The notes under the pieces were generated by a model. The model was given only the letters and a program-made list of their open reading frames with translations. It did not search any database and was not told the origin of the DNA. This document shows positions 1-38,538 of a DNA stretch of 64,000 nt, one piece after another (the stretch's first letter is position 1; every line of letters begins with the position of its first letter). The position numbers were made by a program, and so were the translations under genes. Source of the stretch: a phage; sequence record PX068454.1; one strand, given 5' to 3'.

Positions 1-124
1 GGCGGACGAAATGGGAATACTTCTCATTCTTATAACAATTCTCAAATATCAAGGCAGTGAGGCAAATTAATAGGTGAGGCCGTTCACACAGTGGCACAAC
101 ATTTGCAACCTATCTTGTGTGGAG

Positions 125-163
125 GAATGAGAATACCTATCATTGTGAGAACCATTATCATTA
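125..163. promoter_or_regulatory. operator-like motif (AATGAGAA..ATCATT / GAGAACCATTATCATT)
   Basis: Read directly; related copies at 11831-11857 and 11971-11987. Confidence 0.3.
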
Positions 164-454
164 CGGGCAATTTAACATAATACCCATTATGCGCACCACT
201 GGCGATACATACAGGGATTGATAACATGAGTTACTGTTTACGCATATAACAATTATATTTCTTACTATTTGTGTGGGATATAGTTAGCAACCAATAGATT
301 AGATATTGACCTGCAGACTTCTGACCGTCCAGACGTCTAAACGCCCACACACCAAGGGTTATACATACATTCCTGAATGTAAACAGGGCCGCAAAAATGC
401 TACCATACCAGTTTGTAAATTTTTCATGCAGCACTTGACAAAGAGGAGAAAAAC

Positions 455-565
455 TTGTCTGACACAATGTGACAAAATTGTCACTTTTGCCACTTTTACC
501 TTTGACACAATGTCACACAATATGCCATAATCTGACACCTTATACACTTTCGACACAATAACGAC
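455..565. repeat. cluster of GACACAAT(G) repeats with inverted repeat GTGACA-aaat-TGTCAC
   Basis: Four GACACAAT-like copies (461, 504, 534, 552) and palindrome at 469-484; no credible ORF. Confidence 0.5.
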
Positions 566-2451: not shown

Positions 2452-2724
2452 TTACTTACGGCGGCAGAATTCAAGCGTTTTTAATTGATAATCTTCCTCA
2501 GCCTGGAGTACAACCGCCTCGATCATTTCGTTGGCATTGGTGAAGCCATACCCTTGAGCGAACTCATCCGCGCCACCTTCGTGATCATGTTCTGCGTTCA
2601 TCGCTTCCACAAAATGGAATTCAAGATTATTGAGGTAAGGGCTTGATGTTCCGTCCTCTTTTTCGATGAGATCCCAGATAGCATTAAAACGTGATTCAAC
2701 TTCTTGATTAATCCAGCTTGACAT
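2452..2724 (-). CDS. hypothetical acidic protein (90 aa)
   Basis: ORF track; preceded by promoter 2779-2807 and 5' UTR hairpin 2754-2767. Confidence 0.55.
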   Translation of the reverse strand: MSSWINQEVESRFNAIWDLIEKEDGTSSPYLNNLEFHFVEAMNAEHDHEGGADEFAQGYGFTNANEMIEAVVLQAEEDYQLKTLEFCRRK

Positions 2725-2778
2725 AATGTTTTCCTCTCTTCTGGTTGTTGTGTGGGCACTTTTGCCCCTTCAAGATAA

Positions 2779-2807
2779 ATAATATCCCACCACCTGGCAG
2801 ATGTCAA
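2779..2807 (-). promoter_or_regulatory. sigma70-type promoter TTGACA-17-TATTAT
   Basis: Hexamers read on minus strand; GC hairpin at 2754-2767 in the predicted 5' UTR. Confidence 0.6.
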
Positions 2808-2830
2808 CGGTTTTTATAGTTTTTATATAA

Positions 2831-2878
2831 CAGGCACCCCCGGTGATTGTCTCCCCCCGTCGCCAGGTGCCTGCCGTG
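2831..2878 (-). repeat. conserved GC-rich element, copy C (core GGGGAGACAATCACCGGGGGTGCC)
   Basis: Near-identical core to copies at 11779-11816 and 11916-11957; flanking inverted repeat CAGGCACC/GGTGCCTG. Confidence 0.5.
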
Positions 2879-2887
2879 AAACAAGTA

Positions 2888-2919
2888 TAACAAAAAACAG
2901 GACCATTGCAAGCCCTGTT
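2888..2919 (-). terminator. rho-independent terminator
   Basis: Hairpin ACAGG-N11-CCTGT followed on minus strand by TTTTTTG; downstream of CDS 2936-3127. Confidence 0.55.
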
Positions 2920-2935
2920 TTGTAGTTTATAAGGA

Positions 2936-3127
2936 TTATATTTTTTCGCCTATGTAGTCCGGTCGGTTTTTCTCTGTCATGCGCTTTAGCAATTCTTGCA
3001 TGTTACTTATGGCTTGTAGTGTATCCCCTTCCAGGCTTGAATCGACATAATCAGGATCGTCTATGACCTTTCTATGATTATGATAACGCAGTACCGCCAA
3101 TACCTTTCTAACTTGTTCGATATTCAT
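2936..3127 (-). CDS. hypothetical protein (63 aa)
   Basis: ORF track. Confidence 0.5.
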   Translation of the reverse strand: MNIEQVRKVLAVLRYHNHRKVIDDPDYVDSSLEGDTLQAISNMQELLKRMTEKNRPDYIGEKI

Positions 3128-3139
3128 TTTTACCGCTCT

Positions 3140-3274
3140 TTAAAACAAGGTGCCAACCGTTTCCAATAGATCACTGACTACCAGGACAATACCGATCAGC
3201 ACATACCTAACCATAAGGAGAAAGAGCGCCAGCGATCCCGCCACAATCCCCAAGGTGATGATTATCTTTCTCAT
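3140..3274 (-). CDS. small hydrophobic membrane peptide (44 aa, not in ORF track)
   Basis: ATG 3 nt after stop of upstream gene; translation MRKIIITLGIVAGSLALFLLMVRYVLIGIVLVVSDLLETVGTLF. Confidence 0.35.
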   Translation of the reverse strand: MRKIIITLGIVAGSLALFLLMVRYVLIGIVLVVSDLLETVGTLF

Positions 3275-3276
3275 GG

Positions 3277-3561
3277 TTAACGGTTTACGTAAGTTTTCCC
3301 GTTTACGGTGATTGGCAGATCTTCCAGGTCTGGATCTTCCTTAAGGTCGCGAGCAAGCTCACCGCACCGGATACCCTCGAATCCGTAGTACTCTGTCGTG
3401 CCGTCCTTAAAAGTTTTAGCGGCAAGGCATAAGCGATAAGTGACCCCGATTCGATTGACGGCATGAATATCCGTTAGATTAACCTCTTTTGCCAGCTCTT
3501 TAGCCATTACAGGCGCATTAAGTCCAACAACCAGGGCAACCACTGCGATCATCTTTTTCAT
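3277..3561 (-). CDS. secreted protein with N-terminal signal peptide (94 aa)
   Basis: N-terminus MKKMIAVVALVVGLNAPVMA looks like a Sec signal peptide. Confidence 0.55.
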   Translation of the reverse strand: MKKMIAVVALVVGLNAPVMAKELAKEVNLTDIHAVNRIGVTYRLCLAAKTFKDGTTEYYGFEGIRCGELARDLKEDPDLEDLPITVNGKTYVNR

Positions 3562-3652
3562 TGTGTCTATCCTCTTTCTGCTACGTTTAAGGCGGCGGTA
3601 ACCGCCTGTTTATGCTTTATTGGTTAATTTTCAGGTATCTCTATAAATTAAA

Positions 3653-3868
3653 CTATGCTGTACGCTCAACTATAACAACGGTTTGAGGGATCTCACCTTC
3701 CACCACTATCAAGGCTTTTTTCTGCGTGATGGATATCTTTACCCGTTGCAGCGTGGCGGTGAAGTCTTTCATTTCGTCACGTGGTGTTTTAGTGCAATAC
3801 CAGATCTCAGGCTTGCCGATCTGCAAGTTGCGTAAAAATTCTGTTTTGCCTGTTTTGTTAGTGATCAT
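3653..3868 (-). CDS. hypothetical protein (71 aa)
   Basis: ORF track. Confidence 0.5.
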   Translation of the reverse strand: MITNKTGKTEFLRNLQIGKPEIWYCTKTPRDEMKDFTATLQRVKISITQKKALIVVEGEIPQTVVIVERTA

Positions 3869-3877
3869 TTGCCAACC

Positions 3878-3982
3878 TCACCCGATACCGTTGGAAGATA
3901 AGATCACATTAGCCATGGTTGCAATCAGGCCAATACCCAGGGCAATAACCAGGATCACCGCATCAATTAATTTCTGTTTCAT
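3878..3982 (-). CDS. small membrane peptide (34 aa, not in ORF track)
   Basis: RBS GAGGAA then ATG; translation MKQKLIDAVILVIALGIGLIATMANVILSSNGIG. Confidence 0.3.
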   Translation of the reverse strand: MKQKLIDAVILVIALGIGLIATMANVILSSNGIG

Positions 3983-4072
3983 TTTGTTTTCCTCTTCTTG
4001 TTCCAGGTGGCGGACCATTCCACCGCCTTATGTATTATGCTTTGTAAGATGGTTGTTTGTTTTCAAACTATT

Positions 4073-4252
4073 TTAACGATAATCATCGTACGCTTTATTA
4101 ACCTGGCGAATATAACATTCAAAAGCCAGATCAATAGATTTATATTCACGGATATACTCACCATAGGAAACCACATACATTTCTATAGCTTCCTCATATG
4201 CGAGGAGAATAGAATCCAAGCCTACGATCTCAGTCTTTGCAATAATAGCCAT
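4073..4252 (-). CDS. hypothetical protein (59 aa, not in ORF track)
   Basis: Manual translation MAIIAKTEIVGLDSILLAYEEAIEMYVVSYGEYIREYKSIDLAFECYIRQVNKAYDDYR fills an operon gap. Confidence 0.4.
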   Translation of the reverse strand: MAIIAKTEIVGLDSILLAYEEAIEMYVVSYGEYIREYKSIDLAFECYIRQVNKAYDDYR

Positions 4253-4323
4253 GATTTTTATCCTCTTTGTGGTTGGTGGGGCTTGCCCCTTTGATTTATA
4301 TACTACAGTCTTATATGGTCATG

Positions 4324-4557
4324 TCAACTATTTTCAAAAAATTTTTCTGCTGTGATATTTTTCCCGGTCGGATTGGCTACTTTTAAAATTCTATCATGCA
4401 CCGGACGCCCGAAAGAATAAGATCCGTATACAGTAAACCAATAATCGCCGTCAGGTTGTACTATTACCGCCGCATATGGTACGCCTTTTTCGTTTTTGCT
4501 GACAAAATAGATCACATTGCCATTAATAGCCTCAGCGCGTTTAATTTGTTCCATCAT
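4324..4557 (-). CDS. hypothetical protein (77 aa)
   Basis: ORF track; RBS GAGAGG upstream. Confidence 0.5.
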   Translation of the reverse strand: MMEQIKRAEAINGNVIYFVSKNEKGVPYAAVIVQPDGDYWFTVYGSYSFGRPVHDRILKVANPTGKNITAEKFFENS

Positions 4558-4611
4558 GATGATTTACCTCTCTTTATTTTCATAATTGGGGCCTTTTCGG
4601 CCCCGCCAGGT

Positions 4612-4896
4612 TTATTTATTGATAGCGTGCAGCGGGAAAGGTACGCCAGGTTGATAGATAACTTTTACAACCTCATCAGGGCAAAAGAAATTGCAGAATT
4701 CACCCTGATAAGCCTCATCCTCTTTTAATTCTTCATCAACATACTGGAAAAAGTAGTCAATGCTTGGATAATCCTGACCGGGATTATATTCAACCATGGT
4801 TAATAACAATTCTTGATCATTCCGTATGATATGCATACCAGCTTTTAAGTATTTGGCTTCCATTTCTACTACATCGCCAACGGTAACAATAGCCAT
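4612..4896 (-). CDS. hypothetical protein (94 aa)
   Basis: ORF track. Confidence 0.5.
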   Translation of the reverse strand: MAIVTVGDVVEMEAKYLKAGMHIIRNDQELLLTMVEYNPGQDYPSIDYFFQYVDEELKEDEAYQGEFCNFFCPDEVVKVIYQPGVPFPLHAINK

Positions 4897-4955
4897 GGTT
4901 TTAACTCCTATCTATCCGGTTAATGATTGGAGGCCTCCCCGCCCCCGACACCCTT

Positions 4956-4984
4956 TATTATCCATATTGTAGGACTTGATGCAA
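4956..4984 (-). promoter_or_regulatory. sigma70-type promoter TTGCAT-17-ATAATA
   Basis: Shares AATATGGATAATAA block with promoter at 6120-6148; GC hairpin downstream. Confidence 0.45.
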
Positions 4985-5101
4985 GTACTTCTTTAAAAAT
5001 TTTTTAAGCGCCTTGGGGGCCGCTGTAACGCCAAAATAATAAAGGCTATGCAACCGCATAGCCTTTATGTGATTATACCGCTGCAGGCCCTGCCAGGGGC
5101 C

Positions 5102-5452
5102 TTATTTTGCATTCTTTCCTATATTGCCGCTACGGTACCAGCGTTTACGGTGAAAATGGTAATAATCACCATCGGCATTAAACATCAGATGATTTTCAAT
5201 AGCCAGCTTACGAAGGTGGGCCGGATCTTGTTCCATTCTTGCCAGATTCTGGCGGCTGTTACGTAAGCGGATAAATTCCATATTCAGGCCGTTGATTGCA
5301 GCATGGATGTCAAAGTAACCACCTTTGAGACGTTCACGCATGGCGTTAAGCTCAACACAATATACAGATTTCTCACAAATCAAGGTATTAGCCAGGGCGC
5401 GGACCTGGGCAAGGGGGTTAAGCTCATTAAGGTAATATAGTTTTACTTTCAT
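5102..5452 (-). CDS. hypothetical protein (116 aa)
   Basis: ORF track. Confidence 0.55.
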   Translation of the reverse strand: MKVKLYYLNELNPLAQVRALANTLICEKSVYCVELNAMRERLKGGYFDIHAAINGLNMEFIRLRNSRQNLARMEQDPAHLRKLAIENHLMFNADGDYYHFHRKRWYRSGNIGKNAK

Positions 5453-5469
5453 AAAATCACCTGCTGAAA

Positions 5470-5790
5470 TTAGTTTGAGAAAACATCGTTCACAATAGCG
5501 ATCACAATGCCGCCCACCTTGTCACGGTCAACAATGCACAAATCACCATAGATCATGTGGTAGTCTGGATGATCTTTGACGGAATAGTCTATAAGTGTTT
5601 TCTTGTCATCCAGCTTACTAACTTCCATTCTCATAACGATATGAGAATCATCAAAGGCATTATTCCGAAAAGTCATAACCTGACCGCCAGGGCACCCGGT
5701 GATTTCCACCTCCACGCCGTCTACGATCTGACCATCAAAGAAATAAAGATTATTAGCCTGGATAAACATGATCATTACTCCTTTTTGCAC
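5470..5790 (-). CDS. hypothetical protein (106 aa)
   Basis: ORF track. Confidence 0.55.
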   Translation of the reverse strand: MQKGVMIMFIQANNLYFFDGQIVDGVEVEITGCPGGQVMTFRNNAFDDSHIVMRMEVSKLDDKKTLIDYSVKDHPDYHMIYGDLCIVDRDKVGGIVIAIVNDVFSN

Positions 5791-5860
5791 TGATTATTTT
5801 AACAGGGTTTAAATTTACTTTATTGATGGCCCTGGAGTCAAGGCCATCTAAAAATAAATT

Positions 5861-6061
5861 TTACAGGCCTACAATCTCTTTAATTCGTTTTACTGCTGCC
5901 TCAGCGCCTTGAGGGTAAAAATTATGGTAACCAATCACGCGAGTGATACTAATCGCCGTTTGATGATCTTCATAATCACCTTTAAAGATTTCTTGACCGT
6001 CAATCAGCACGGCAATTTTTTCTTCTTTTTTGAAGTTAATAACGCGGATATTGTTGCTCAT
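5861..6061 (-). CDS. hypothetical protein (66 aa)
   Basis: ORF track; promoter and 5' UTR hairpin upstream. Confidence 0.5.
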   Translation of the reverse strand: MSNNIRVINFKKEEKIAVLIDGQEIFKGDYEDHQTAISITRVIGYHNFYPQGAEAAVKRIKEIVGL

Positions 6062-6119
6062 TTTGTTTCTCCTTTTGGAACTTTGTCTATGCGGTGGGGA
6101 GTGTCTCCCCGTTGATTGT

Positions 6120-6148
6120 TATTATCCATATTCTGGATCGGATTGCAA
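6120..6148 (-). promoter_or_regulatory. sigma70-type promoter TTGCAA-17-ATAATA
   Basis: Followed by 5' UTR hairpin GGGGAG-N-CTCCCC at 6097-6111. Confidence 0.45.
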
Positions 6149-6157
6149 CACTCAGGG

Positions 6158-6199
6158 AGAAAAAAAAAATTGAAAAGTTAGGCCCCAGGGATCGGGGCC
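6158..6199 (-). terminator. rho-independent terminator
   Basis: Hairpin GGCCCCGATCCCTGGGGCC followed on minus strand by a T-rich run. Confidence 0.55.
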
Positions 6200-6203
6200 G
6201 TTA

Positions 6204-6323
6204 TCAGTTACTTACAGCGATAAAATACATCCCTACGCCTAACAATATTTCAAGGGCGATGATCTCAAGCCATACCATAACACGGCGCGCCTTATCGGTG
6301 CGGGGCTTATCCTTGGGTGTCAT
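6204..6323 (-). CDS. small membrane protein (39 aa, not in ORF track)
   Basis: Strong RBS GGAGGAAAGGGGGAG before ATG; hydrophobic core; ends immediately before terminator. Confidence 0.4.
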   Translation of the reverse strand: MTPKDKPRTDKARRVMVWLEIIALEILLGVGMYFIAVSN

Positions 6324-6343
6324 CGTCTCCCCCTTTCCTCCTG

Positions 6344-6583
6344 TTAGCAGTGACGTGGTTTGCAATGGCCCCCAGGAGTATTATCACCACGCACATTACA
6401 AGAAAAATTATCTCTGTCGTTGTTCGATCCATTGTTATAAAATTCCTTAAGATCAGGCCTGAAAATAAAGCTTTCGTTATTGAATCCATCCCGCCAGGCG
6501 GCTGGCTTCAAATCTTCACTAAAGGGGTTAATTAACGTGGCATTATTTAAACGGCTGGTCCACATATTTTCTATTCCTCTCAA
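6344..6583 (-). CDS. hypothetical protein (79 aa), uncertain
   Basis: ORF track; RBS GAGAGG; overlaps upstream gene; competes with ORF 6307-6489. Confidence 0.35.
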   Translation of the reverse strand: MRGIENMWTSRLNNATLINPFSEDLKPAAWRDGFNNESFIFRPDLKEFYNNGSNNDRDNFSCNVRGDNTPGGHCKPRHC

Positions 6584-6947
6584 ATAGGCGATCCGCCTCA
6601 GTTAAACAAATCTCATGGGCGTGATCTCTGGTTTTAGCTTCATCGAAAACCTGTTGTGCAAGGCTGCAACGTAGGGAGACTGGAAGATCACTATAATAGG
6701 CGTTGACAAACGTTTGAGCGTCGTACAGGTCTGAAAATACTTTACCCTTTCTATTATTCCCCTTGTCAACAATTGCAAGGATAACCAATACAATAGTTGC
6801 AACCACTCCCAGGAAAATAGATATAACAAACCATAGAAAAGCGGATCTACCCATCTTGCCAGCGATCCAGGCGTTGAACAAGGCAACTACTACAGCCAAA
6901 ATAATAAATTCCATTCTATGTACCTCTTTTGCAGTTCTGTTTAACAA
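6543..6947 (-). CDS. membrane protein (134 aa, two predicted TM helices)
   Basis: Hydrophobic segments FIILAVVVALFNAWIAG and FLWFVISIFLGVVATIVLVILAIV. Confidence 0.6.
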   Translation of the reverse strand: MLNRTAKEVHRMEFIILAVVVALFNAWIAGKMGRSAFLWFVISIFLGVVATIVLVILAIVDKGNNRKGKVFSDLYDAQTFVNAYYSDLPVSLRCSLAQQVFDEAKTRDHAHEICLTEADRLFERNRKYVDQPFK

Positions 6948-6978
6948 TAAGGCGGCAAATATGCCGCCTGTTACCTGA

Positions 6979-7359
6979 TTAAAAATTATCGCCGTAAATC
7001 TTTCCGCTTTCTGCCCACACCGCCACGCGGGGCATGTTATCCCATACGTCTTGTTTTAGATTTAACGCGTGCAATTCTTCTGTGGTGCTCATACCAGGCA
7101 CGGGCTGATTGTATACTGCAAAACGACCACCTGCATAATCATAAGCTAAAGTCAAATCGCACTGAATCATTTTCTTGATCATGGCGTTAAGCATAGCGTT
7201 AGCCGCGTACTGGTCACGTTTTAAAGGCAACTCTTTGATTAGTTTGCGATAGTTTTCGATATGGTCGCACACTGTTTCACGTGGAAGATCTTTCATATCT
7301 TCACGGAATGTAACCAGGTTAAACATAACGGTGTCAATAGCTTTAGTAGTGTTTTTCAT
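6979..7359 (-). CDS. hypothetical protein (126 aa)
   Basis: ORF track; promoter and hairpin upstream. Confidence 0.55.
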   Translation of the reverse strand: MKNTTKAIDTVMFNLVTFREDMKDLPRETVCDHIENYRKLIKELPLKRDQYAANAMLNAMIKKMIQCDLTLAYDYAGGRFAVYNQPVPGMSTTEELHALNLKQDVWDNMPRVAVWAESGKIYGDNF

Positions 7360-7414
7360 GATGTTTTCCTCTTTGTTTTGTGTGGGGGCAAGTCATCTCG
7401 CCCCCTTAAGTTTT

Positions 7415-7442
7415 AATATAGCAGGTTTTTAGATTATTGCAA
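7415..7442 (-). promoter_or_regulatory. sigma70-type promoter TTGCAA-16-TATATT
   Basis: Followed by 5' UTR hairpin GGGGGC-N-GCCCCC at 7384-7405. Confidence 0.5.
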
Positions 7443-7450
7443 CACTTTAT

Positions 7451-8074
7451 TTATGAAAAACTCATCTCCCCATATTCATCCACATCAAACCGCCAATCAT
7501 TGGCTTCAATAAGGCCGATCAGGTTTTCGGTAGTAAACTGTTCAAGATAGGCCTCCTCCAGGTCTACATAAACCTTGCGGGATAGCTCCCGTACCGTCTC
7601 GGTGATCAGCTCTTCCAGATCTTCCACTTTATTTTCTTGTTTTGCGGTCAGATCTAGCCAGGTAGTATCAATATATCCGCTTACAGTGTTTTCATGGCTG
7701 TAATGGCTGTACTTGTCGCGTTCAACACTGGCTGATAGTTCGCCATCGTGCATTGTGCCGAACAAGTGACGAATTGATCGGAACTTGGTCAGGGCCTTGA
7801 CTTTACGCAAGAATTTCTCTAAGTCTACATTTTCAGCACTAATTGACGCGCCATCGCCTTGACACCAAAAGCCGGACCAATGTACATCGGTATCTTCAAG
7901 GCCGTACTCTGGAAAAACTTGTTCTTTATAATATTCAATTACACTTTCTGCGAAAAAATCCTCTCCGCTGTGTTCTTCTCTTTCGCGGACCATTTCAATA
8001 GCTTTTTCTTTTTGTTCGTCGGTCAGCACGTCGAAAGATAAATTGCAACCTGTGGTAATGTTAACGGTAGTCAT
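7451..8074 (-). CDS. hypothetical acidic protein (207 aa)
   Basis: ORF track; promoter and hairpin upstream. Confidence 0.6.
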   Translation of the reverse strand: MTTVNITTGCNLSFDVLTDEQKEKAIEMVREREEHSGEDFFAESVIEYYKEQVFPEYGLEDTDVHWSGFWCQGDGASISAENVDLEKFLRKVKALTKFRSIRHLFGTMHDGELSASVERDKYSHYSHENTVSGYIDTTWLDLTAKQENKVEDLEELITETVRELSRKVYVDLEEAYLEQFTTENLIGLIEANDWRFDVDEYGEMSFS

Positions 8075-8131
8075 GATATTTTCTCCTATTTTCTTTGTTA
8101 GTGGCGGGAAGTTTTCCCGCCTGTGTGTTTA

Positions 8132-8159
8132 AGTATACTTATTGAGGCTTACTTGTCAA
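8132..8159 (-). promoter_or_regulatory. sigma70-type promoter TTGACA-16-TATACT
   Basis: Followed by 5' UTR hairpin GGCGGGAA-N-TTCCCGCC at 8103-8121. Confidence 0.6.
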
Positions 8160-8161
8160 CA

Positions 8162-8410
8162 CTATTTTTTTAAATTATTGTGGCGTAAAATGTTTAGAAT
8201 CTCTTCAACGTCATCAACACGGCGGCAATTTTTAAACGCTACCAATTGCCCCATGATTTTAATCACTGGGCGGCCTTGCCAGTGCCCCTGGAGAAAGCGC
8301 GCCTTGACTTTATCGGTGGAACTATCACGCCACCAAATGGCCTTGTTGTTGCAGTAGTAAAAATTATTCAGGACAACATCAACTTTATCAAAATTTTTTA
8401 ATTTACGCAT
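8162..8410 (-). CDS. hypothetical protein (82 aa)
   Basis: ORF track. Confidence 0.5.
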   Translation of the reverse strand: MRKLKNFDKVDVVLNNFYYCNNKAIWWRDSSTDKVKARFLQGHWQGRPVIKIMGQLVAFKNCRRVDDVEEILNILRHNNLKK

Positions 8411-8442
8411 GGCGTTTACTCCTTTCTCTCTTTGATGTGGTT

Positions 8443-8470
8443 AGTATAGCTAACCTGTTTAAGATGTCAA
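8443..8470 (-). promoter_or_regulatory. sigma70-type promoter TTGACA-16-TATACT
   Basis: Hexamers read on minus strand upstream of CDS 8162-8410. Confidence 0.55.
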
Positions 8471-8612
8471 GCTTTAAATAAAATCACTGTCAATGATATT
8501 TTTAACGCCATAAAACGGCCCTAAGCGATGTTTTCAGGTTAAAGGGGGGCGATTGCATAGGTGGGGCCTTTTTGGCGCTTACAGGGCCAACCAGGGGCGC
8601 TATTCGTAGGAT

Positions 8613-8643
8613 AGAAATAAAAAGCCCCGCACAATGGCGGGGC
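8613..8643 (-). terminator. rho-independent terminator
   Basis: Hairpin GCCCCGCC-N-GCGGGGC followed on minus strand by TTTTTATTTCT. Confidence 0.55.
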
Positions 8644-8651
8644 GTTGGTTG

Positions 8652-8873
8652 TTATTTGTCTTTATGGCGGTATCGTTCTGCCTGTCGTTCACGTTCCAAA
8701 AGTAGGCCAGGCAATTTACGATCATAATGATTCCGCCAGATCTTCCCAAATCTTTTTGGCTTATTCAGTTTATTGTTGCGCTGGCGACGTTCCGGCAACT
8801 CTTCGGAATCATGAGGGCGCTTTACAATTTTTTCGAAATTAATTTTCATAACTTCCCCCCTTACTGATCTCAA
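8652..8873 (-). CDS. hypothetical basic protein (73 aa)
   Basis: ORF track. Confidence 0.45.
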   Translation of the reverse strand: MRSVRGEVMKINFEKIVKRPHDSEELPERRQRNNKLNKPKRFGKIWRNHYDRKLPGLLLERERQAERYRHKDK

Positions 8874-9210
8874 TATTTGCCTGAATCGCCCGGATACGCC
8901 GTTTTATAACCTCCTGATCCTTGCAATCATATCCCCAAAAGTCTACGATTTTTGCGCCTCCAGCCTTTAGGCGGTATAGTGTTTCTTGCATCTTGTAGGC
9001 CGGGATCGGTCGCGGTGTTACCTGGTCGCCCTTCTCATTCTTGTACTTGATAATGTAGTCTTCATTGTCGTTGAATACCCAAAATGGGTATTCTGTGAGC
9101 GCGTTGCTCTCTTTTTCGTTTTTAGATTGGATCTTGTTTACAATTAAAGCCGTAGCAATAGCGCCAATAATAAAACTTGCCCCACTGATCATGTTACTTT
9201 CTCCTTTCAT
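8839..9210 (-). CDS. membrane-anchored protein (123 aa)
   Basis: N-terminal hydrophobic helix ISGASFIIGAIATALIV. Confidence 0.55.
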   Translation of the reverse strand: MKGESNMISGASFIIGAIATALIVNKIQSKNEKESNALTEYPFWVFNDNEDYIIKYKNEKGDQVTPRPIPAYKMQETLYRLKAGGAKIVDFWGYDCKDQEVIKRRIRAIQANIEISKGGSYEN

Positions 9211-9268
9211 TGTATTGATAAACTATCTTTATAGATGGCCCTGCTACCAGGACCACCGAAAAAACAGT

Positions 9269-9514
9269 TTATTTGACGATACCGACAAAACAGATCCCGC
9301 CTTCCCCTATATAGGCAATATCGGTAATTTTATAATTTGTCAAGATCCGCGTGTTCAGCTCATTAATAAAATCTGTCATCGCGTTGGTGTAGTTGTCTTC
9401 CGTGTCTAAGGCATAATCCCAGGTGTAAACCTTTTTACGTCCGAAGCCTTTTACCATGATCCGGGCGCTTTTGGTGTTGGTAGGGGCATAGTATTTGGTG
9501 ATTAGTGCTGCCAT
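9269..9514 (-). CDS. hypothetical protein (81 aa)
   Basis: ORF track. Confidence 0.5.
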   Translation of the reverse strand: MAALITKYYAPTNTKSARIMVKGFGRKKVYTWDYALDTEDNYTNAMTDFINELNTRILTNYKITDIAYIGEGGICFVGIVK

Positions 9515-9600
9515 GGTTTTAACTCCTCATTAGTTCAGTGTTAACAGTGTAAAGTTTACTTTATTGATGGCCCTGGAGTCAAGGCCATCTAAAAATAAAT

Positions 9601-9951
9601 TTACTCGTTTTCTTCCAGTTCTGCAAGCTCTTCTTTCACTTCTTCGAGCTCTGTCTGCAATTCCTGGTATTCTTCATCGTCCTCAATATCCAGGCTGTCG
9701 ATGTAGTCGCTAAATCCGCAGCGGTAAGCGATAGGATCTAGCTCTTTGAGGATACGCGACGGAAGAAAAGAAATGTTTCCGATCATAATTTCGCCGTAGA
9801 TCTCGTCTAACCATTCATCATAGTTTTCGTCGTACTTGTCCTCGTCGATTTCAAAGTTATCGATCTTGTCTTCAAGTTCTGCAATCTGTTTTTTCAGGGC
9901 GGCGATCTGCAGGGCTTTTTCTTCGGCGGTCATAGTGATGGAAGTATTCAT
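9601..9951 (-). CDS. acidic coiled-coil protein (116 aa)
   Basis: ORF track; highly acidic composition. Confidence 0.55.
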   Translation of the reverse strand: MNTSITMTAEEKALQIAALKKQIAELEDKIDNFEIDEDKYDENYDEWLDEIYGEIMIGNISFLPSRILKELDPIAYRCGFSDYIDSLDIEDDEEYQELQTELEEVKEELAELEENE

Positions 9952-10003
9952 AATGTTTTCTCCTTTTGGTGTTCTGGGAAGTTTTCCCGTTTATGTGCTT
10001 AGT

Positions 10004-10031
10004 ATTATACTGATTTAAGTTAGCTTGTCAA
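10004..10031 (-). promoter_or_regulatory. sigma70-type promoter TTGACA-16-TATAAT
   Basis: Consensus hexamers; followed by 5' UTR hairpin GGGAA-N-TTCCC at 9974-9989. Confidence 0.65.
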
Positions 10032-10226
10032 TTAAAAGTTTAAGAAAAATTTTGCGAAATCATTGGCGCTACTCATCAACATTTGCGCCAGGATGTAACC
10101 AATGATGCAAACGATAATAGTTACCTTTGTGTGCTGGCGTGTAGTGCTCATCTTCAAGCCTCCTTTTTAACTGGGATTAGTTTACTTTACTGATGGCCCT
10201 GGAGTCAAGGCCATCTAAAAATAAAC

Positions 10227-10622
10227 TCAATAAGTTTTTAGTACTTTCCCGTCCAATCTGTCAAGCTGGATCTCGATAGCTGCAGAAAACCTATTGTAAA
10301 CCACATCGCCCAAGGAGTCCAGCCAATCTATGACGTTATACACCTGCTCTTTATTCTTGCAAGTCCGGATCCGTTTCATTACGTAAGACGGATCAATATT
10401 AGCGCTCTCGTTGTTGTGGTCATGCTCCTGGCCTGCTGCATTAGTTATAGATTTTACAACCACCTGAAAAGGCTTTAAGGTGCCTTTTGCGTTCATCTCA
10501 CGCGCTTTTGCGGCGCGGTTGTTATATGTTACACAACGGCGGCAAATGTTGACCAAATGCATGTCAATAATTTTTTCATCGTTTGCCAGTTCGTTCATGA
10601 TGCGGCGTACGTTCTTATTCAT
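10227..10622 (-). CDS. hypothetical protein (131 aa)
   Basis: ORF track. Confidence 0.55.
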   Translation of the reverse strand: MNKNVRRIMNELANDEKIIDMHLVNICRRCVTYNNRAAKAREMNAKGTLKPFQVVVKSITNAAGQEHDHNNESANIDPSYVMKRIRTCKNKEQVYNVIDWLDSLGDVVYNRFSAAIEIQLDRLDGKVLKTY

Positions 10623-10670
10623 GATCTTTTTCCTTTGTGTTGGCGGGAAACATTCCCGCCTTTTGTGATT

Positions 10671-10698
10671 AGTTTACTTGAATTTTGCAGCGTGTCAA
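10671..10698 (-). promoter_or_regulatory. sigma70-type promoter TTGACA-16-TAAACT
   Basis: Followed by 5' UTR hairpin GGCGGGAA-N-TTCCCGCC at 10642-10660. Confidence 0.6.
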
Positions 10699-10704
10699 CA
10701 ATTT

Positions 10705-11103
10705 TTATTCGTGGGCGCATGTTACAATGTGCTTTTTATAGCCCAGGTGGTTAGCAAGTGCCGACAAAAACTCTTCTTCATAGATCCAGCCGTTGGCAGT
10801 GATCCCCATAGCATTTAATGCGCTCTCAAGTGCTGCATTAGCTTTATCGTAACCGTGACCGCTCGCCTTCCCGCCAGTATAACCGTACTTATTGTTCTTG
10901 TTGTCGTGAATCCAAAAAACGCAGTATTGAGTGTTCCCGCTGGCGGCGGCATAATACCGGATCTCAGCTACTTCGTGCAAATTATTGTCATCGTCCAGGC
11001 CCACCAGATTATAAGCCTTGTAAAATCCACGATCCCGGCGGCAGTTCTTGACATCAGAAAAAGAAAAGTCCGCATTATCAAAATTAAAGGTAGTGGTTTT
11101 CAT
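10705..11103 (-). CDS. hypothetical protein (132 aa)
   Basis: ORF track. Confidence 0.55.
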   Translation of the reverse strand: MKTTTFNFDNADFSFSDVKNCRRDRGFYKAYNLVGLDDDNNLHEVAEIRYYAAASGNTQYCVFWIHDNKNNKYGYTGGKASGHGYDKANAALESALNAMGITANGWIYEEEFLSALANHLGYKKHIVTCAHE

Positions 11104-11167
11104 GATTTTATCCTCTTAGTGTCTTTTGTGCTTTTAGTGTATTTGGTGTCAGACTATATGTCAATAC

Positions 11168-11365: not shown

Positions 11366-11778
11366 GATTTTTATCCTCTCTGTTAATTAGTGTGGTGTTG
11401 TTCACCTTGCGAGGATAAGAATAACAGAACTCTCCGAGCTGTCAACCATTAGTTAGAATTATTTTTTGGGAAGAATTCTCCAGCCGCCGCCCCTGCCAGG
11501 TTAACCATCATTTTTCGTACTCTTCTTTATGTTCCAACGCTCCCGCCATAGCCTTTTCAACCAGGGTGATAACTTCAGCGGCGTTGATCGCTACATTTTC
11601 CAGGGGATTATATTACTTTTCATTTTTGTACCTCCTCTTCAATTGTTACCTGACCTGTAGCATAGGCCTGCCAGGCTGGCCCCGCCAGGTTGCAACGGTT
11701 AGCGCATCAGGTTAGAAAAATTTTTTGAAAAGTGTTGACAGCGGCCCCGCCAGGTGGCACAATATACCTATCGAAAGG

Positions 11779-11957: not shown

Positions 11958-12591
11958 TTATTCTGCAAACGAGAATGATTATCATTCAAAATTCTAAATG
12001 AGAACTCCTCGCATTTAATAAATTTAATTAGCGTGCTAATTACCCTCCGTAACAATTTCCTATAAAACAGTATCCCATAAAATATTCCCATATAGAAATT
12101 TTAAAAATCCATTTCTGAAAACGAAAAATCGATTTCGTTCCCAAAAATTTCAGGTCGAGCTCCGGAACGATTTCCAGAAAATCCGATTCAGAAAACGAAA
12201 AACAGATCGAGTACTGAGAAATTTATCGAGAAAAATTTTCAGAAAATTCAATCTTTGAAACGAAAAACAGATCGAGTACCCTGAAAGCTGTACCGCAACC
12301 TCAAGATAGTGGTTAGACTATTACCATAAAAAGTCAAGGGTAAGTGGAGGAAGTTCTAGTAGAAGGATGTGAGCATGTGCGGGAAATCTGTAATGGTGGT
12401 CTGGAATATGGTGCAAACGATAGGATGAGCGATTCAGCTTGTCGCGCCTACTCTGAAAAATCCATTTTAGTTTTCGATCCATTTTCTGATTTTCTAAGAA
12501 TTTTAAAATATCTGGTCCGGTGAAATATCAAAAGGAGGAAATCCATTTTAGAAATCCTCCTGATCTCTAGCAACCTGATAACTTAAAAATA

Positions 12592-20983: not shown

Positions 20984-21259
20984 CAATAGTTCAGGTAGGT
21001 CGTTAAGCTACCCCGCACCATTACGTGCATAGCCATACGTTTTCACGTAGGATCGGACCATCTCATATTCCTATGATAAGCAACCACAGGAATCCTCCCA
21101 TTTCGACCGCACTTGCTGGTCTACTTCCTTTCGGAATGGCCTCTGAGCGTTCGCTCTTTTGAGCGCTTCGTTGCGGATTACCTTGCCATAAGGTTTAGGC
21201 TTCCCGCAGTTAAAGAGGTTATTCGACATAGATTACTCTATGAAGCCACAATGTTATTT
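20984..21259 (-). ncRNA. candidate group I self-splicing intron (ORF-less, 276 nt)
   Basis: Joins ..IIYYH to DEYQLQV restoring HDE; 5' exon ends in U and intron ends in G; IGS GUGG pairs with exon CCAU; P/Q/R/S-like elements ACUGCGGGAAGCC, AAUCCGCAAC, CUCAGAGGCCAUUCC, GAGAUGGUCCGAUCC. Confidence 0.7.
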
Positions 21260-23683
21260 ATGGTAATAAATAATACGACGAACACCTTCATCGTACCACC
21301 CACGCTTCACCATCTGGTGGTGCATGAGTATCCCAACTAAGTCACACAGCGATGCACCACCATTCTGTTGGTATGCATTAAGTAAAGAGTGTTTAGATCG
21401 GGTCCAGATAGCATGACCATCAAAAGAGTAGATAAACTTCTTACCCGTTGCTTCCCAGAATTTCTCCAGATCCTCTTTACGCCCTTTAAGACCAGGGTTG
21501 GCATCCCAAAGCGCATCGATTACCCTTTGCCCCAACTCTGGGGAGATATCCAGCATATCTGCAACTTTATCTTTTTGTGCCCCATACATAACCCCATACG
21601 TGATAGGTTTACCGTCGTTACGAGACACCTCTCTACCTGCCACTTTTGTATATGCCTCAGCATTGTTTTGGTGTGCGTCCCCGTTACTTACAACATCGTA
21701 ATACAGGCCGTTGTCGAACTCAAAGGCACCCCAAGCCCCGATAAGCTGCTCTAAGTTGGACCCGTCAATACCGATCTCAAAGTATCCTGGAGGAACACCC
21801 CACAGACTACGCATCTCTTTACCCATAACCACTTTAGGAGATGGTTTAGGCATGTTTGCACAAATACTGTGTTTCTGTCGGGAAGTGTTTGTTAATCCAG
21901 AACTTTTAGCAGGAAGCTTATGGTCAATCTTCAAACGTGGGTGATTAAGAAGACCAGTATCAACCTTATCCTCCTTGATTGGATCAAGGACCGATCTGCG
22001 GTTTCGCAATGATAACCACAAGACGATATCTTTAGCCATCTCTCCGTTCAATTTTTCAAGATTCGGACATAGGTGTCCAAACGTATCTTTCAGTTGCGGA
22101 GAAGTAATAAGTGCCCTGGCTTTTCTACGTATTTTCCCGAATACTTCCTTTTTAATCCTTTCGGAGTTAGGAAAGCTTCGGAACTTGTGCACGGTTGTCT
22201 GGAACTTAGCATCAGTTTTGTTCCAGAAGTTGATAATCAGGTCACAATACTCTGACTCTAAAAGCTCGTCCATATATGCATATACTCGTGCATCAACATC
22301 TGCATCAGGTAGAGCTTTCTTCTTGCTGTCTTTAGTTACATCCTTAGTTCTCCACATTGTCGGAAGCCAACCAGCACTGATCAGGTATCGCTTAATGTCG
22401 TCCTGATTGCTGATTTTCATAAGTATCTTGCAGTCCGGCATTCGCTTCTGCTGTAGATCACTTATTGCCTGATCCATTAGCTCTTTAGGTAAAGGTTGTG
22501 GTGTTGAGGTGCCCTTAATATAGCCTCTCAAGAAATCAGCCATCTTATCGGGGTCTTTGCAGCCCATCTCTTCACACCATTTTATCCCCATCTTACTGAC
22601 ATCTCCTGTGGAGGTAAATGCTCGCTTAGGCGGGGCTTTGAACTCTAAAGCGCTCATATCTACAGGATAGCCAAGCTTATCTTTTAACCATTTCCAGCCA
22701 TTATTGGAAATTGTCCCATCTTGGTTGAACGGCTTTTCAGGGAATTTAGGCCGCTGAGATATTGATAACTCTTTTAAAGGAAGTTGAGGTTCAACACGAT
22801 CAGCGATCTCTTTCATCCACGCATCACAGCGGTCACGTAAAGCAATAGCCCCGTCTATGTCGAAATACACACCCTGACGGGCCTGCAGCTCCATCAGGAA
22901 GTGCTGCAGCATGCCTCGGCGTAATGCGTTCTTCCAGGTGATCTTCTTGAACCCTTTCGGCTTCTCTTTGGCAGGATCGTACATAAAGTTCTGCATGTCA
23001 GACTTGCCGTAGAATACACCTTTTGATTCCGCTACCAGTTCTTTCCAGAGCAGCTCCTGGATGATAACGTCCTCAAATACACGATCCACATACTTCCACA
23101 ACGGAAGATCGCGCCAGTCATCAATTTGAACTTTCTGGTTACCAAGAGCATAGCCCCATGCCATAAGGCCGTGAGGACCAACAGGCTGCATTTTCTTAGT
23201 GACCGGGTTGAATACAGAGTCCGGACAACCTTTTGGTAAAGGGCGATCAGGCCACAAGATTCGACTCATCGCCAACGTATCAAACAGGTTAACCTGGTGG
23301 TCGTTGATAGTCCCCATGCATTTAGGATCACGGAACATGTCAAAATGAATACCGGATAATCTTTCCATCAGCATAAAGTCATAACTGTAGCAGTTATGGC
23401 AGTTCAAAGCTGTTGGTGACCAGTCGGAATTGCCTGTAAGCCAACCTTCCAACTCCGAAAAATCTGCTATGCGAACTTCAAAATCTTTATAAAGAGTTTT
23501 CTTTGCCAGAATGAAGTTCTTAGCCTTTTCTATATCCTCCTCGGAGTAGTGTGTGCGGTCATTTAGAGGAAGGAACAGCATAAAACGGTTCTTATTCAGC
23601 TCTTTAAACAGACCGCAGTGATAATAAAGATCTGGGTCTTCCAGTAAACCGGATGACTCAAAATCGAACGACCACATGCTCAT
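21260..23683 (-). CDS. DNA polymerase (family A, with 3'-5' exonuclease domain), exon 1
   Basis: Exo motifs FDFESSG and CYSYD; motif A GIDGSNLEQL; motif B KPITYGVMYGAQ; stops one codon after YYH. Confidence 0.85.
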
Positions 23684-27519: not shown

Positions 27520-27821
27520 CAGAAACCTCCCACTTCTTCAGCAAATGCAGCTGCTGTCGTCGCTGCATCCAGATAGGACTCTAGTTCACGGGCTGCACGT
27601 TTGTAAATTGAGTGTCGCAAATCGTTTGGCAGTTGGTGGAAGTCCACCTCTTCACCGTTGTGGTAAACATGCACATCGGTAATTTGTCTAAATCCGTAAT
27701 AGTCAACATCAGAATCACGGCACTCCGGGTCTGGCAACTGGACAACTGCCTGAGCTTCTACAGTAAACATATCGTCAAGTTCGAAATCGATTTCAAAAGT
27801 GTATGGTTTATAACGTTTCAT
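27519..27821 (-). CDS. hypothetical protein (100 aa)
   Basis: ORF track. Confidence 0.5.
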   Translation of the reverse strand: MKRYKPYTFEIDFELDDMFTVEAQAVVQLPDPECRDSDVDYYGFRQITDVHVYHNGEEVDFHQLPNDLRHSIYKRAARELESYLDAATTAAAFAEEVGGF

Positions 27822-27881
27822 CGTTTAGTGCTTCCTTAGTTTTTGTGGGGAGGAGTGCCTCCCCTTTAGACTCACATCTTA

Positions 27882-28223
27882 CTACTGAAGGTCTTCAGAG
27901 TCAAGCTCAAAAAGAATCAAACTGTGCATACCTGCAGAGAGATCAACACACCCTGCAACAATAAGGGTCTGATAGTAATGTTCAGCACCCTCGATGTCTT
28001 CGTTAAAATCTACAACAAGGTAGTCACCTTTGTTAAAGGTGTATTTGTCCGATGTAAACGCAAAACCTGCCCAGTCCCCTACTGCAGGATCTTTATCAGT
28101 CACCTTTGTTAGCAGTAGATCTTTTTCACGAGATCTTTTAGTAAAATCGTGAATCACAACATCCTTCTCTTCAGGAGTTGGATTGCCGCACACGTAGTTA
28201 ACTATATTTCTCCACAAACTCAT
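27882..28223 (-). CDS. hypothetical protein (113 aa)
   Basis: ORF track. Confidence 0.5.
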   Translation of the reverse strand: MSLWRNIVNYVCGNPTPEEKDVVIHDFTKRSREKDLLLTKVTDKDPAVGDWAGFAFTSDKYTFNKGDYLVVDFNEDIEGAEHYYQTLIVAGCVDLSAGMHSLILFELDSEDLQ

Positions 28224-37548: not shown

Positions 37549-38538
37549 ATGAATCTTGAAAAATATTATACACCAGAAGAGTTAGAGCGCTTGCTCAAAA
37601 AATACAGACGCAAACAGAATAACGCACGGAAACGGGATATAGAGTTCAACCTGTCATGGGAAGAATATCTCCTATTTGGTAAAAAACTTTTAGGAGAGGG
37701 AGTATGCGACTATACCCTTATACCTTTCGACATGCACACAGATGAAAACGGACTGGGAAATCCTTTCTACCCATCTCTGGAGCGGATAGATGATGAAGGT
37801 CCTTATGCGGTTGATAATTGTTGTGTGGTGGGATTGAGATGCAACTCCCTAAAGGACTGCCTGGTAGATAAAAAGACCGCAGTCTTGATTAAAGACAAAA
37901 CTGATCGAAAAATTGTCCAGCAGATGATGCTCCACCTGAGCGAAGAGCGTATGGAGAAATTGAAAGGTGATTACACTTTTGAAGATTTCATCTTGCAATA
38001 TGGAACGGAAGAGGATAAACTGGCACTCTTTGACGAAGAATGGGAGGAAGATATGTCACCAATGCAGGATTTTAAAAACTTCATGGCTAATCGTGGAGCC
38101 AACAAGCACATTTCTGACATTGTAAACGAGCCTGTAGTAGAGGAGATTGAAGAGATGACGCAACAGGCTTACGAAGAGGAAAAAGAGCCTCAAGGGGTCG
38201 AAGAAGAGCTTACAGAAGAGGTTCCTGCACTGCCTGACGATGTTGAGATTGCCAAAGCTTACACTTTCTATTGCCAGACGTTCTACGATGCAGGTATGAA
38301 AGTTGATCTGTCCTTCAGCCAGTTTAAGAGCACATACATTCGAAAATGTTGTGCTTTAACTGGTGAGCGTCTCGGGGCCGGACTTAAACCACTATTAGTT
38401 ACCGACTGGAACAAAGGTTTCACCAAAGGTAACTTCATGGTAGTATCTCCAATCATGGAAAAGGCTATGACAGACCTTATGAAGACCACTCGCATGACAA
38501 TGACCGAGTTGGCTGGTATTTTCAAGCACGTTAAATAA
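37549..38538 (+). CDS. protein with two HNH_3-like endonuclease-type modules
   Basis: Likely ATG at 37549; motifs SLERIDDEGPYAVDNCCVVGLRCNSLK and a second related C-terminal module. Confidence 0.5.
   Translation: MNLEKYYTPEELERLLKKYRRKQNNARKRDIEFNLSWEEYLLFGKKLLGEGVCDYTLIPFDMHTDENGLGNPFYPSLERIDDEGPYAVDNCCVVGLRCNSLKDCLVDKKTAVLIKDKTDRKIVQQMMLHLSEERMEKLKGDYTFEDFILQYGTEEDKLALFDEEWEEDMSPMQDFKNFMANRGANKHISDIVNEPVVEEIEEMTQQAYEEEKEPQGVEEELTEEVPALPDDVEIAKAYTFYCQTFYDAGMKVDLSFSQFKSTYIRKCCALTGERLGAGLKPLLVTDWNKGFTKGNFMVVSPIMEKAMTDLMKTTRMTMTELAGIFKHVK

Follow-up and report, generated by a model that had tools for sequence, protein, structure and literature searches.

Cassettes that couple an early promoter to a stem-loop have been described in the T4-like phages RB49/phi1, PST/T4 and nt-1/KVP40 (Arbiol et al. 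2010, PMC2839356; Comeau et al. 2014, PMC4122927), under the name of promoter-early stem-loop (PeSL) cassettes; the authors reported no evidence of them outside T4-like phages, and the literature searched contained no later report of such cassettes in rV5-like or phi92-like phages. PeSL is the closest known system to the elements considered here, which were identified in PX068454.1, an rV5-like Escherichia coli phage (Vequintavirus, Vequintavirinae); the window, namely the whole stretch of DNA analysed, is 64,000 nucleotides (nt) long. Each element is a four-part cassette: a sigma70 promoter close to consensus is followed by a hairpin whose 5′-arm is rich in G/purines and whose 3′-arm is rich in C, by an unstructured leader, and by a strong Shine-Dalgarno (SD) site with the start codon. 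We consider it an even chance that these are compact early-gene expression cassettes, analogous to PeSL, in which the hairpin is a 5′-proximal structure on the cassette's own transcript.

Similarly to the elements of this window, PeSL cassettes join a near-consensus sigma70 promoter to a G(n)-loop-C(n) stem-loop, followed by a CA-rich leader and a strong SD site; they occur in many copies in a hyperplastic region, in front of ORFans, and close relatives differ by insertion, deletion or replacement of cassettes, in some cases through recombination between the repeated elements. The PeSL stem-loop is placed within or over the promoter: it may occupy the spacer, cover the −35 or the −10, precede the −35, or come immediately ahead of the start site. 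The G-first polarity of the stem is also found in RB49. However, direct examination of RB49 revealed that its stems lie in the spacer that separates −35 from −10 or straddle the −10, hence outside their own transcript, whereas the main stem class of the window starts 9-11 nt past the −10, after the expected start site and thus at the predicted 5′ end of the transcript. In the window, a PeSL-like placement is limited to four repeats overlapping a −35 and to two stems, at promoters 19251 and 17976, that straddle the −10, which is the commonest RB49 geometry. Moreover, the PeSL stem is reported to terminate transcription, while the stems of the window are devoid of the U-tract of canonical intrinsic terminators, and the host phages are not T4-like (Straboviridae) but a Vequintavirus and, in addition, phi92-like Stephanstirmvirinae. 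PeSL features also include encapsidated mini-circles.

Other systems resemble single parts of the cassette. The 5′ untranslated regions of ompA and papA of E. coli carry 5′-terminal stem-loop stabilisers (Emory, Bouvet and Belasco 1992, as listed in PMC3997798), in which a stable hairpin, placed at the 5′ end or close to it, precedes a short leader that is unstructured and contains the ribosome-binding site (RBS). This layout, shared by the cassettes, fits a design where a bound ribosome and the 5′ hairpin together protect the leader. In these stabilisers the stem is essentially at the 5′ terminus, while here an unpaired tail of 2-4 nt is predicted. Lambdoid morons (Hendrix et al. 2000, as discussed in PMC2839356) are likewise single accessory genes with their own promoter, gained and lost as units, but as a rule a promoter and a terminator delimit them, and a repeated conserved linker is missing, whereas the cassettes form a co-oriented array with a shared architecture. 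A lambda-type nut site (boxA + boxB) was considered and rejected: the loops differ (UGU, AAC, AUGA, ACA, CAAG, AAAG, CACU) and no flanking motif is shared in the window.

The early region and its promoters

Over its full length, the stretch at 2700-10700 of the window matches about 90 genomes of Vequintavirus with 92-98% identity; Shigella phage CM1, rV5 variants and BASEL phages are among them. In the records of EdH4 and Gotham, which start at the physical end of the genome, the early region lies 2-10 kb from the terminal repeat; it contains exclusively small leftward genes for hypothetical proteins and no plus-strand genes. The cassettes are restricted to this hyperplastic region beside the genome end. 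Window positions 1-478 coincide with the start of both records (the repeat_region annotated in Gotham spans 1-459) and are present twice in tandem in the CM1 locus; they are probably the terminal repeat or genome end adjacent to the early region.

Promoter-like sites are abundant in the first 20 kb (76, versus 42.7 +/- 6.8 in shuffles). The original prediction placed leftward near-consensus promoters in front of early genes, and all the elements that it named are indeed present on the minus strand. Nine near-consensus sigma70 promoters were found on this strand between 2.7 and 10.7 kb (10698, 10031, 8470, 8159, 7442, 6148, 4327, 2807 and 4984); the first eight match the consensus at 9/12 to 12/12 positions, are intergenic and face small open reading frames (ORFs), while promoter 4984 has TTGCAT as its −35. 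The cassette promoters have spacers of 16-17 nt and A/T-rich DNA upstream. The spacer is 16 nt (optimum 17) in seven of the nine hairpin-bearing promoters, and 16 or 17 nt in the hairpin-less ones. Most of the promoters concerned had been predicted in the rV5 genome paper (P164, P168, P174, P185, P186, P192, P194, P195), which also reported the canonical terminators t177, t181 and t184 in the region, without mention of the leader hairpins.

The cassettes are listed below, together with a strong promoter devoid of hairpin; names correspond to the minus-strand position of the first −35 nucleotide, and z compares the leader fold with dinucleotide shuffles.

10620..10698, minus strand: P10698 (rV5 P194), −35 TTGACA at 10698-10693, −10 TAAACT at 10676-10671; hairpin GGCGGGAAUGUUUCCCGCC at 10660-10642, 10 nt past the −10; leader 19 nt; ATG 10622; fold −14.6 kcal/mol, z −4.1
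9949..10031, minus strand: P10031 (rV5 P192), consensus TTGACA-16-TATAAT; weak hairpin GGGAAAACUUCCC at 9988-9976, 15 nt past the −10; ATG 9951; z −2.3
8072..8159, minus strand: P8159 (rV5 P185), −35 at 8159-8154, −10 TATACT at 8137-8132; hairpin GGCGGGAAAACUUCCCGCC at 8121-8103, 10 nt past the −10; ATG 8074; z −4.9
7357..7442, minus strand: P7442, TTGCAA-16-TATATT; hairpin GGGGGCGAGAUGACUUGCCCCC at 7405-7384, 9 nt past the −10; ATG 7359; z −5.7
6059..6148, minus strand: P6148, TTGCAA-16-GATAAT; hairpin GGGGAGACACUCCCC at 6110-6096, 10 nt past the −10; ATG 6061; z −3.5; canonical terminator t181 (6199-6181) just upstream of the promoter
4894..4984, minus strand: P4984, TTGCAT-16-GATAAT; hairpin GGGGGC-GGGGAG-GCCUCC at 4946-4929, 10 nt past the −10; ATG 4896; z −0.1, not individually significant; terminator t177 (5068-5039) upstream
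4250..4327, minus strand: P4327 (rV5 P174), TTGACA-16-TAGTAT; 4-bp hairpin GGGGCAAGCCCC at 4289-4278, 10 nt past the −10; ATG 4252; z −0.9
2722..2807, minus strand: P2807 (rV5 P168), TTGACA-17-TATTAT; hairpin GGGCAAAAGUGCCC at 2767-2754, 11 nt past the −10; ATG 2724; z −2.2; terminator 2921-2894 upstream
27819..27904, minus strand: P27904, beyond the 2.7-10.7 kb region, TTGACT-17-TAAGAT; hairpin GGGGAGGCACUCCUCCCC at 27864-27847, 11 nt past the −10, followed by ACAAAAACUAAGGAAG and the ATG; z −3.2
8443..8470, minus strand: P8470 (rV5 P186), contrast case, strong promoter without hairpin; −10 to ATG 32 nt

Position and structure of the leader hairpins

The hairpin starts 9-11 nt past the −10 at eight promoters (10698, 8159, 7442, 6148, 4984, 4327, 2807 and 27904) and 15 nt past it at 10031. 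The number of promoters with a hairpin, originally given as six, thus rises to eight or nine, and the distance, proposed to be about 20-40 nt, shortens to 9-15 nt past the −10. A comparable hairpin was found in none of the 11 plus-strand promoter units compared. The co-occurrence of promoter and hairpin was judged by pattern-based enumeration against shuffles. This spacing is fixed and non-random: at least eight of nine leaders with a hairpin start at 9-11 nt are expected with P = 8e-14 under a dinucleotide-shuffle null, and with P = 3e-7 when the real hairpins are placed at random within their leaders; paralogy among some of the cassettes brings the effective n nearer to six, with P still about 1e-5 to 1e-6. 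Between hairpin and ATG the distance varies far more (19-34 nt in the window cassettes; 17-34 nt at its widest). Thus, since the distance from the −10 is fixed and that to the ATG is not, the hairpin is anchored to the promoter and not to the RBS.

Folding of the leaders is far better than in dinucleotide shuffles for five of the nine (z −3.2 to −5.7) and moderately better for two (z about −2.2), and the hairpins alone fold with −4 to −17 kcal/mol. The leader is A/C-rich and U-poor (A 56%, C 18%, G 17%, U 10%), and the SD site is single-stranded in both the minimum-energy and the centroid folds; the RBS is thus not occluded. At the strong promoters devoid of hairpin the −10 is mostly 29-36 nt from the start codon, with P19502 (51 nt) and P11445 (52 nt) as exceptions, a span similar to the length of the post-hairpin leader in the hairpin cassettes; for this reason the hairpin resembles an add-on, placed at the 5′ end of a short leader that is otherwise standard. 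The RBS regions of many early genes are nearly identical (ACAAAGAGGAUAAAAAUCAUG; 4250-4270, 7346-7376, 11090-11120 and others, minus strand) and surface as direct-repeat families.

As to their sequence, the stems had been described as composed of G and C only; they are GC-rich, but the pair GGCGGGAA/TTCCCGCC includes A-U pairs. This shared motif is exact at 8103-8121 and 10642-10660 (0 expected), with a spacer of three nucleotides (GGCGGGAA-N3-TTCCCGCC) instead of the four first reported, while the third copy proposed at 9974-9989 is partial, GGGAA-N3-TTCCC. The block AATATGGATAATAA, said to be common to P4984 and P6148, is present in exact form at 4955-4968 and 6119-6132 (0.05 expected). A duplication of the module is therefore supported for two pairs, P8159/P10031 (26 nt, 85%) and P4984/P6148 (the 14-nt block), whereas most cassettes share their architecture and not their sequence. 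No stem or loop sequence is common to the cassettes, and an operator or a boxB-like protein site was rejected as the main reading on this ground.

Short GC-rich intergenic hairpins are also the mark of intrinsic terminators. In the EdH4 GenBank record several leader hairpins are in fact labelled as putative terminators, e.g. the orthologues of 10642-10660 and 4278-4289, and the authors of the PeSL work saw their stem-loop as a terminator or attenuator of read-through from the upstream cassette, which would isolate each cassette; indeed, one stem-loop of RB49/phi1 reduced lacZ expression as strongly as rrnB T1 (PMC2839356). In five cassettes of the window the upstream stop codon and the promoter are not separated by a further terminator. 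However, three others (P6148, P4984 and P2807) already have a canonical terminator upstream of the promoter, and all nine hairpins are followed by 0-1 U in the 8 nt after the stem, versus 5-7 in the six canonical terminators of the region. The hairpins are also missing from the list of 20 terminators that the rV5 authors obtained with ARNold/MFOLD, and termination would leave both the fixed distance of 9-11 nt downstream of the promoter and the G-first polarity without explanation. The missing U-tract and the upstream terminators thus argue against ordinary terminators; attenuation is unlikely, and isolation of the cassettes by termination of read-through has, in our judgement, a low probability.

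Termination could also act on the opposite strand, on antisense (plus-strand) transcription running into the early promoters. The elements at 8103-8121, 10642-10660 and 6092-6114 do score as terminator-like on the plus strand, where the A-rich segment between −10 and hairpin becomes a T-rich tract, and promoter-like sites of the plus strand are found near 502-1034; but the T-tract is poor at P4984 and P2807 (1-3 T in 8) as well as in the phi92 cassettes (CTATGTGA, CTACGTGG), and the region has no plus-strand genes, so that we regard this role as very improbable.

The polarity of the stems is a feature in its own right. Across 27 distinct hairpins the 5′ arms contain 116 G and 24 C, while among the canonical terminators of rV5 both orders occur (about 12 G-first to 8 C-first). 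A purine-rich initially transcribed sequence is known to favour promoter escape, from work on T5 N25. The hairpin sequence might serve mainly in initiation, with a G/purine-rich stretch at +4 to +12 forming a stable nascent RNA-DNA hybrid by which RNA polymerase would escape more readily from near-consensus promoters, and with the C-rich arm sequestering an SD-like, R-loop-prone G-run. The fixed spacing from the −10 and the SD-like character of several 5′ arms (GGGGAGG, GGGGAG) are in line with such a role. On the other hand, equally strong promoters of the phage have no G-run, and this polarity is shared by the PeSL stems of RB49, which are located upstream of the start site, so that polarity may have another cause; an initiation role as the explanation of the hairpins is therefore unlikely. 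Stability alone leaves the G-first polarity unexplained, which suggests an effect on promoter escape or a strand-specific recognition.

Conservation in relatives and exchange of cassettes

In eight Vequintavirus relatives the hairpins are nearly always kept in place despite substitutions and indels. At P7442 the orthologues keep the stem through GC<->GU and AU<->GU changes; at P4984 a G-run/C-run hairpin is found at that position in all nine orthologue variants, despite a complete turnover of the stem sequence; the P4327 hairpin is longer in EdH4 and PMBT16. Cassettes of JEP1 and EdH4 that are missing from the window have the same layout, which also occurs, often with GCGGGAA...TTCCCGC stems, in phi92 and alia (Justusliebigvirus), members of another subfamily, the Stephanstirmvirinae; the phi92 cassettes likewise adjoin the terminal repeat. 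The window, the eight relatives, phi92 and alia yielded a list of 42 hairpins; among the 36 best ones situated within about 21 nt of a −10, 29 begin 9-13 nt past it, with many different stems; the architecture thus recurs with unrelated stems in two subfamilies. A scan of IMG/VR for GCGGGAA-N3-5-TTCCCGC gave, among the matches listed, single ones in unrelated contigs; this stem is generic and uninformative on distribution.

The genes behind the hairpins are of the ORFan kind. Nine were analysed, eight following hairpin-bearing promoters and one following the hairpin at 4588-4604: all belong to PHROG families of unknown function, and none of the nine has a significant Pfam match. Pairwise comparison of the window with the eight relatives revealed seven events, either indels or replacements, each of them at the border of a cassette. 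Gain and loss affect entire cassettes, in two cases by recombination inside repeated hairpin elements, which are the following.

10177..10228, minus strand: copy 1 of a 52-62-nt repeat, T-rich tract, hairpin GGCCUUGACUCCAGGGCC with −35-like TTGACT, 18 nt, TAAACT; endpoint of the ECP26 deletion
9551..9602, minus strand: copy 2, other endpoint of the ECP26 deletion
5810..5861, minus strand: copy 3 of the same 52-62-nt repeat
9219..9270, minus strand: diverged copy with hairpin GGUGGUCCUGGUAGCAGGGCCAUC, 71% identity
1524..2125, minus strand: P2059 cassette with an ORF of 139 aminoacids, flanked by two similar hairpins AGGGGC..GCCCCUU

The repeat, present in four copies on the minus strand, is composed of a T-rich tract, a hairpin (GGCCTTGACTCCAGGGCC) with the −35-like TTGACT, and then TAAACT. 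In ECP26 the missing stretch is exactly the one that separates the copies at 9.6 and 10.2 kb, and one hybrid copy is retained, with an overlap of 61 nt; EdH4, PMBT16 and Gotham lack 1543-2087 and have a single hybrid AGGGGC..GCCCCTT hairpin at the junction, with an overlap of 18 nt. Furthermore, genes 4324-4557 and 4073-4252 share 91-93% identity with phi92-like phages, including alia, in which they lie behind different upstream cassettes. Among the relatives the stems of the 52-62-nt repeat are constant while its loop bases vary, and it is terminator-like on neither strand.

These exchanges could indicate that the hairpins work as DNA, either as inverted repeats that are linkers or recombination hot spots for the movement of ORFan cassettes, a role suggested for PeSL too, or as targets bound by a phage protein, for instance a recombinase or an early shut-off repressor. 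Besides the two deletions, the other indels abut cassettes, the cassettes are confined to the hyperplastic ORFan region and their genes are exchanged with phi92-like phages, and the palindromic element overlaps +5 to +23, a classical operator position. However, both proven junctions fall in other hairpin classes, i.e. the −35-overlapping repeat and a terminator-like one, and not in the hairpins that follow the −10; the stems differ between cassettes, with no common operator; homology with phi92 and alia ends at gene borders and not within hairpins; and G-U pairs are present in the stems. We therefore hold a DNA-level role to be distinctly improbable as the explanation of the leader hairpins, and it would be compatible with an RNA function too.

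Possible role of the hairpin on the transcript

The fixed distance from the −10, the variable distance from the ATG, the lack of a U-tract and the separate upstream terminators together indicate that the hairpin probably acts on the 5′ end of its own transcript, most likely as a 5′-proximal stabiliser or insulator. A pyrimidine-purine step (Y7-R8) recurs at nt 7-8 after the −10; transcription would start there, so that within the mRNA of its own cassette the hairpin would lie at about +3 to +5, behind a predicted unpaired tail of 2-4 nt, or of 4-5 nt in phi92. The hairpin would act in cis as a 5′-proximal structural cap; in combination with a ribosome that occupies the short leader, little RNA would remain exposed to RppH/RNase E-dependent decay. 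The hairpin may also insulate the RBS from upstream sequence, and its G-first polarity may help escape from very strong promoters. The original prediction had considered protection from 5′-end-dependent decay, processing or attenuation. A role at the 5′ end is in agreement with the anchoring to the promoter, the unpaired SD, the missing U-tract and the upstream terminators; full 5′-end protection is doubtful, because RppH and RNase E need only at least two unpaired 5′ nucleotides, and prefer at least three (PMC8833179), a requirement for which the predicted tails, in phi92 as well, are long enough.

The length of the tails belongs to a group of observations that weigh against the 5′-proximal structure as the function of these elements. 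Simple orthogonal stem-loops are poor obstacles to the scanning of RNase E (PMC11194081), and for rV5-like or phi92-like phages the literature searched offered neither transcriptome data nor mapped transcription starts. Of the nine hairpins, two (those of P4984 and P4327) do not fold individually better than shuffles; the P4327 hairpin is lost in Gotham, and that of P8159 is lost or weakened in RudolfGeigy. Alignments of the orthologues contained one-sided changes only (GC<->GU, AU<->GU), never a double compensatory one; with 92-98% identity the relatives are too close for covariation support, so that support for the structure rests on the paralogous cassettes. In addition, sense-strand transitions leading to G-U pairs and those leading to A-C mismatches are about equally frequent, and a constraint at the RNA over the DNA level is not proven thereby. 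Finally, many other strong early promoters of the phage carry no hairpin, e.g. 8470, 11164, 13967, 19251 and 20364, and in the rightward early unit of CM1, with genes of nucleotide metabolism, nearly all strong promoters are devoid of it. The hairpin is thus not a general requirement for early mRNAs but belongs to the ORFan region.

A reason to protect early phage mRNAs could be speculatively found in the phage itself, since the window encodes an Srd-like protein, and T4 Srd stimulates RNase E on host mRNA, as cited in PMC4980113. The 5′ hairpin might then be a mark of self that spares immediate-early mRNAs from the RNase E-dependent decay stimulated by the Srd-like protein, within a portable unit of promoter and stabiliser exchanged between rV5-like and phi92-like phages; the genes nearest to the genome end would be transcribed first, by the unmodified host polymerase. 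We consider this proposal unlikely. The protein, similar to rV5 gp11, is encoded at 37549-38538 on the plus strand, at a divergent promoter pair (37475/37489); its PHROG matches are HNH endonuclease (5e-112), decoy of host sigma70 (3e-12) and Srd anti-sigma factor (4.5e-10), and a Pfam search of this protein gave no match.

If the interpretation of the hairpin as a 5′-proximal structure holds, the concept of promoter/stem-loop cassettes would no longer be limited to T4-like phages but include two further groups of large coliphages, present in phage therapy collections, in a version where the stem-loop forms part of the mRNA 5′ end and not of the promoter. It would also provide a testable account of how accessory early genes are expressed and shuffled, as well as compact ready-made parts, made of a strong promoter, a 5′ hairpin, an unstructured leader and an SD site; the terminator labels given to such hairpins in GenBank would need correction.

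Other hairpins and repeats of the window

Three further GC hairpins of the early region differ from the cassettes in their promoters.

4588..4604, minus strand: promoter-less GC hairpin GGGGCCGAAAAGGCCCC, 30 nt upstream of the ATG of gene 4324-4557; no recognisable promoter, no U-tract
4006..4027, minus strand: hairpin GGCGGUGGAAUGGUCCGCCACC, 3-6 nt after a CATAAT without a good −35, upstream of gene 3878-4018
3590..3607, minus strand: hairpin AGGCGGUUACCGCCGCCU, 28 nt upstream of the ATG of gene 3277-3561; no clear promoter; orthologues differ in the loop only

In place of the first of them, phi92 gp247, the homologue of gene 4324-4557 (91% identity), has a full cassette with promoter and GGCGGGAAG...UUUCCCGCC hairpin; at the second, an extra gene is inserted in relatives. 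A long imperfect inverted repeat (CAGGCACC...GGUGCCUG) lies at about 2835-2880 on the minus strand, between the terminator at 2921-2894 and P2807. As to the stems that straddle a −10, the one of P19251 (19185-19262, minus strand) has the form GGGGCC-taaTATAAT-GGCCC, and that of P17976 (17915-17990, minus strand) is a 14-bp stem around TAAAAT, also scored as a terminator. The −35-overlapping repeat family, together with the likeness to PeSL, the G-first polarity and the gain and loss of whole cassettes, was absent from the original prediction.

The gene-poor stretch at 11.4-12.3 kb contains, at 12091-12286, three imperfect direct repeats of about 57 nt (63-77% identity) with an iteron-like look. 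The motif GGCCCCGCCAGG occurs three times, at 4599-4615, 11678-11694 and 11743-11759, the latter two 65 nt apart in the same stretch. In a scan of the 64-kb window with Rfam 15 no family matched the hairpins at the gathering threshold; the sole match in the window is a group I intron at 21034-21269 on the minus strand (RF00028, 64.7 bits), and in CM1 the gene for a family-A DNA polymerase is split at the site of the group I intron, with an ORF for an HNH homing endonuclease between its parts.

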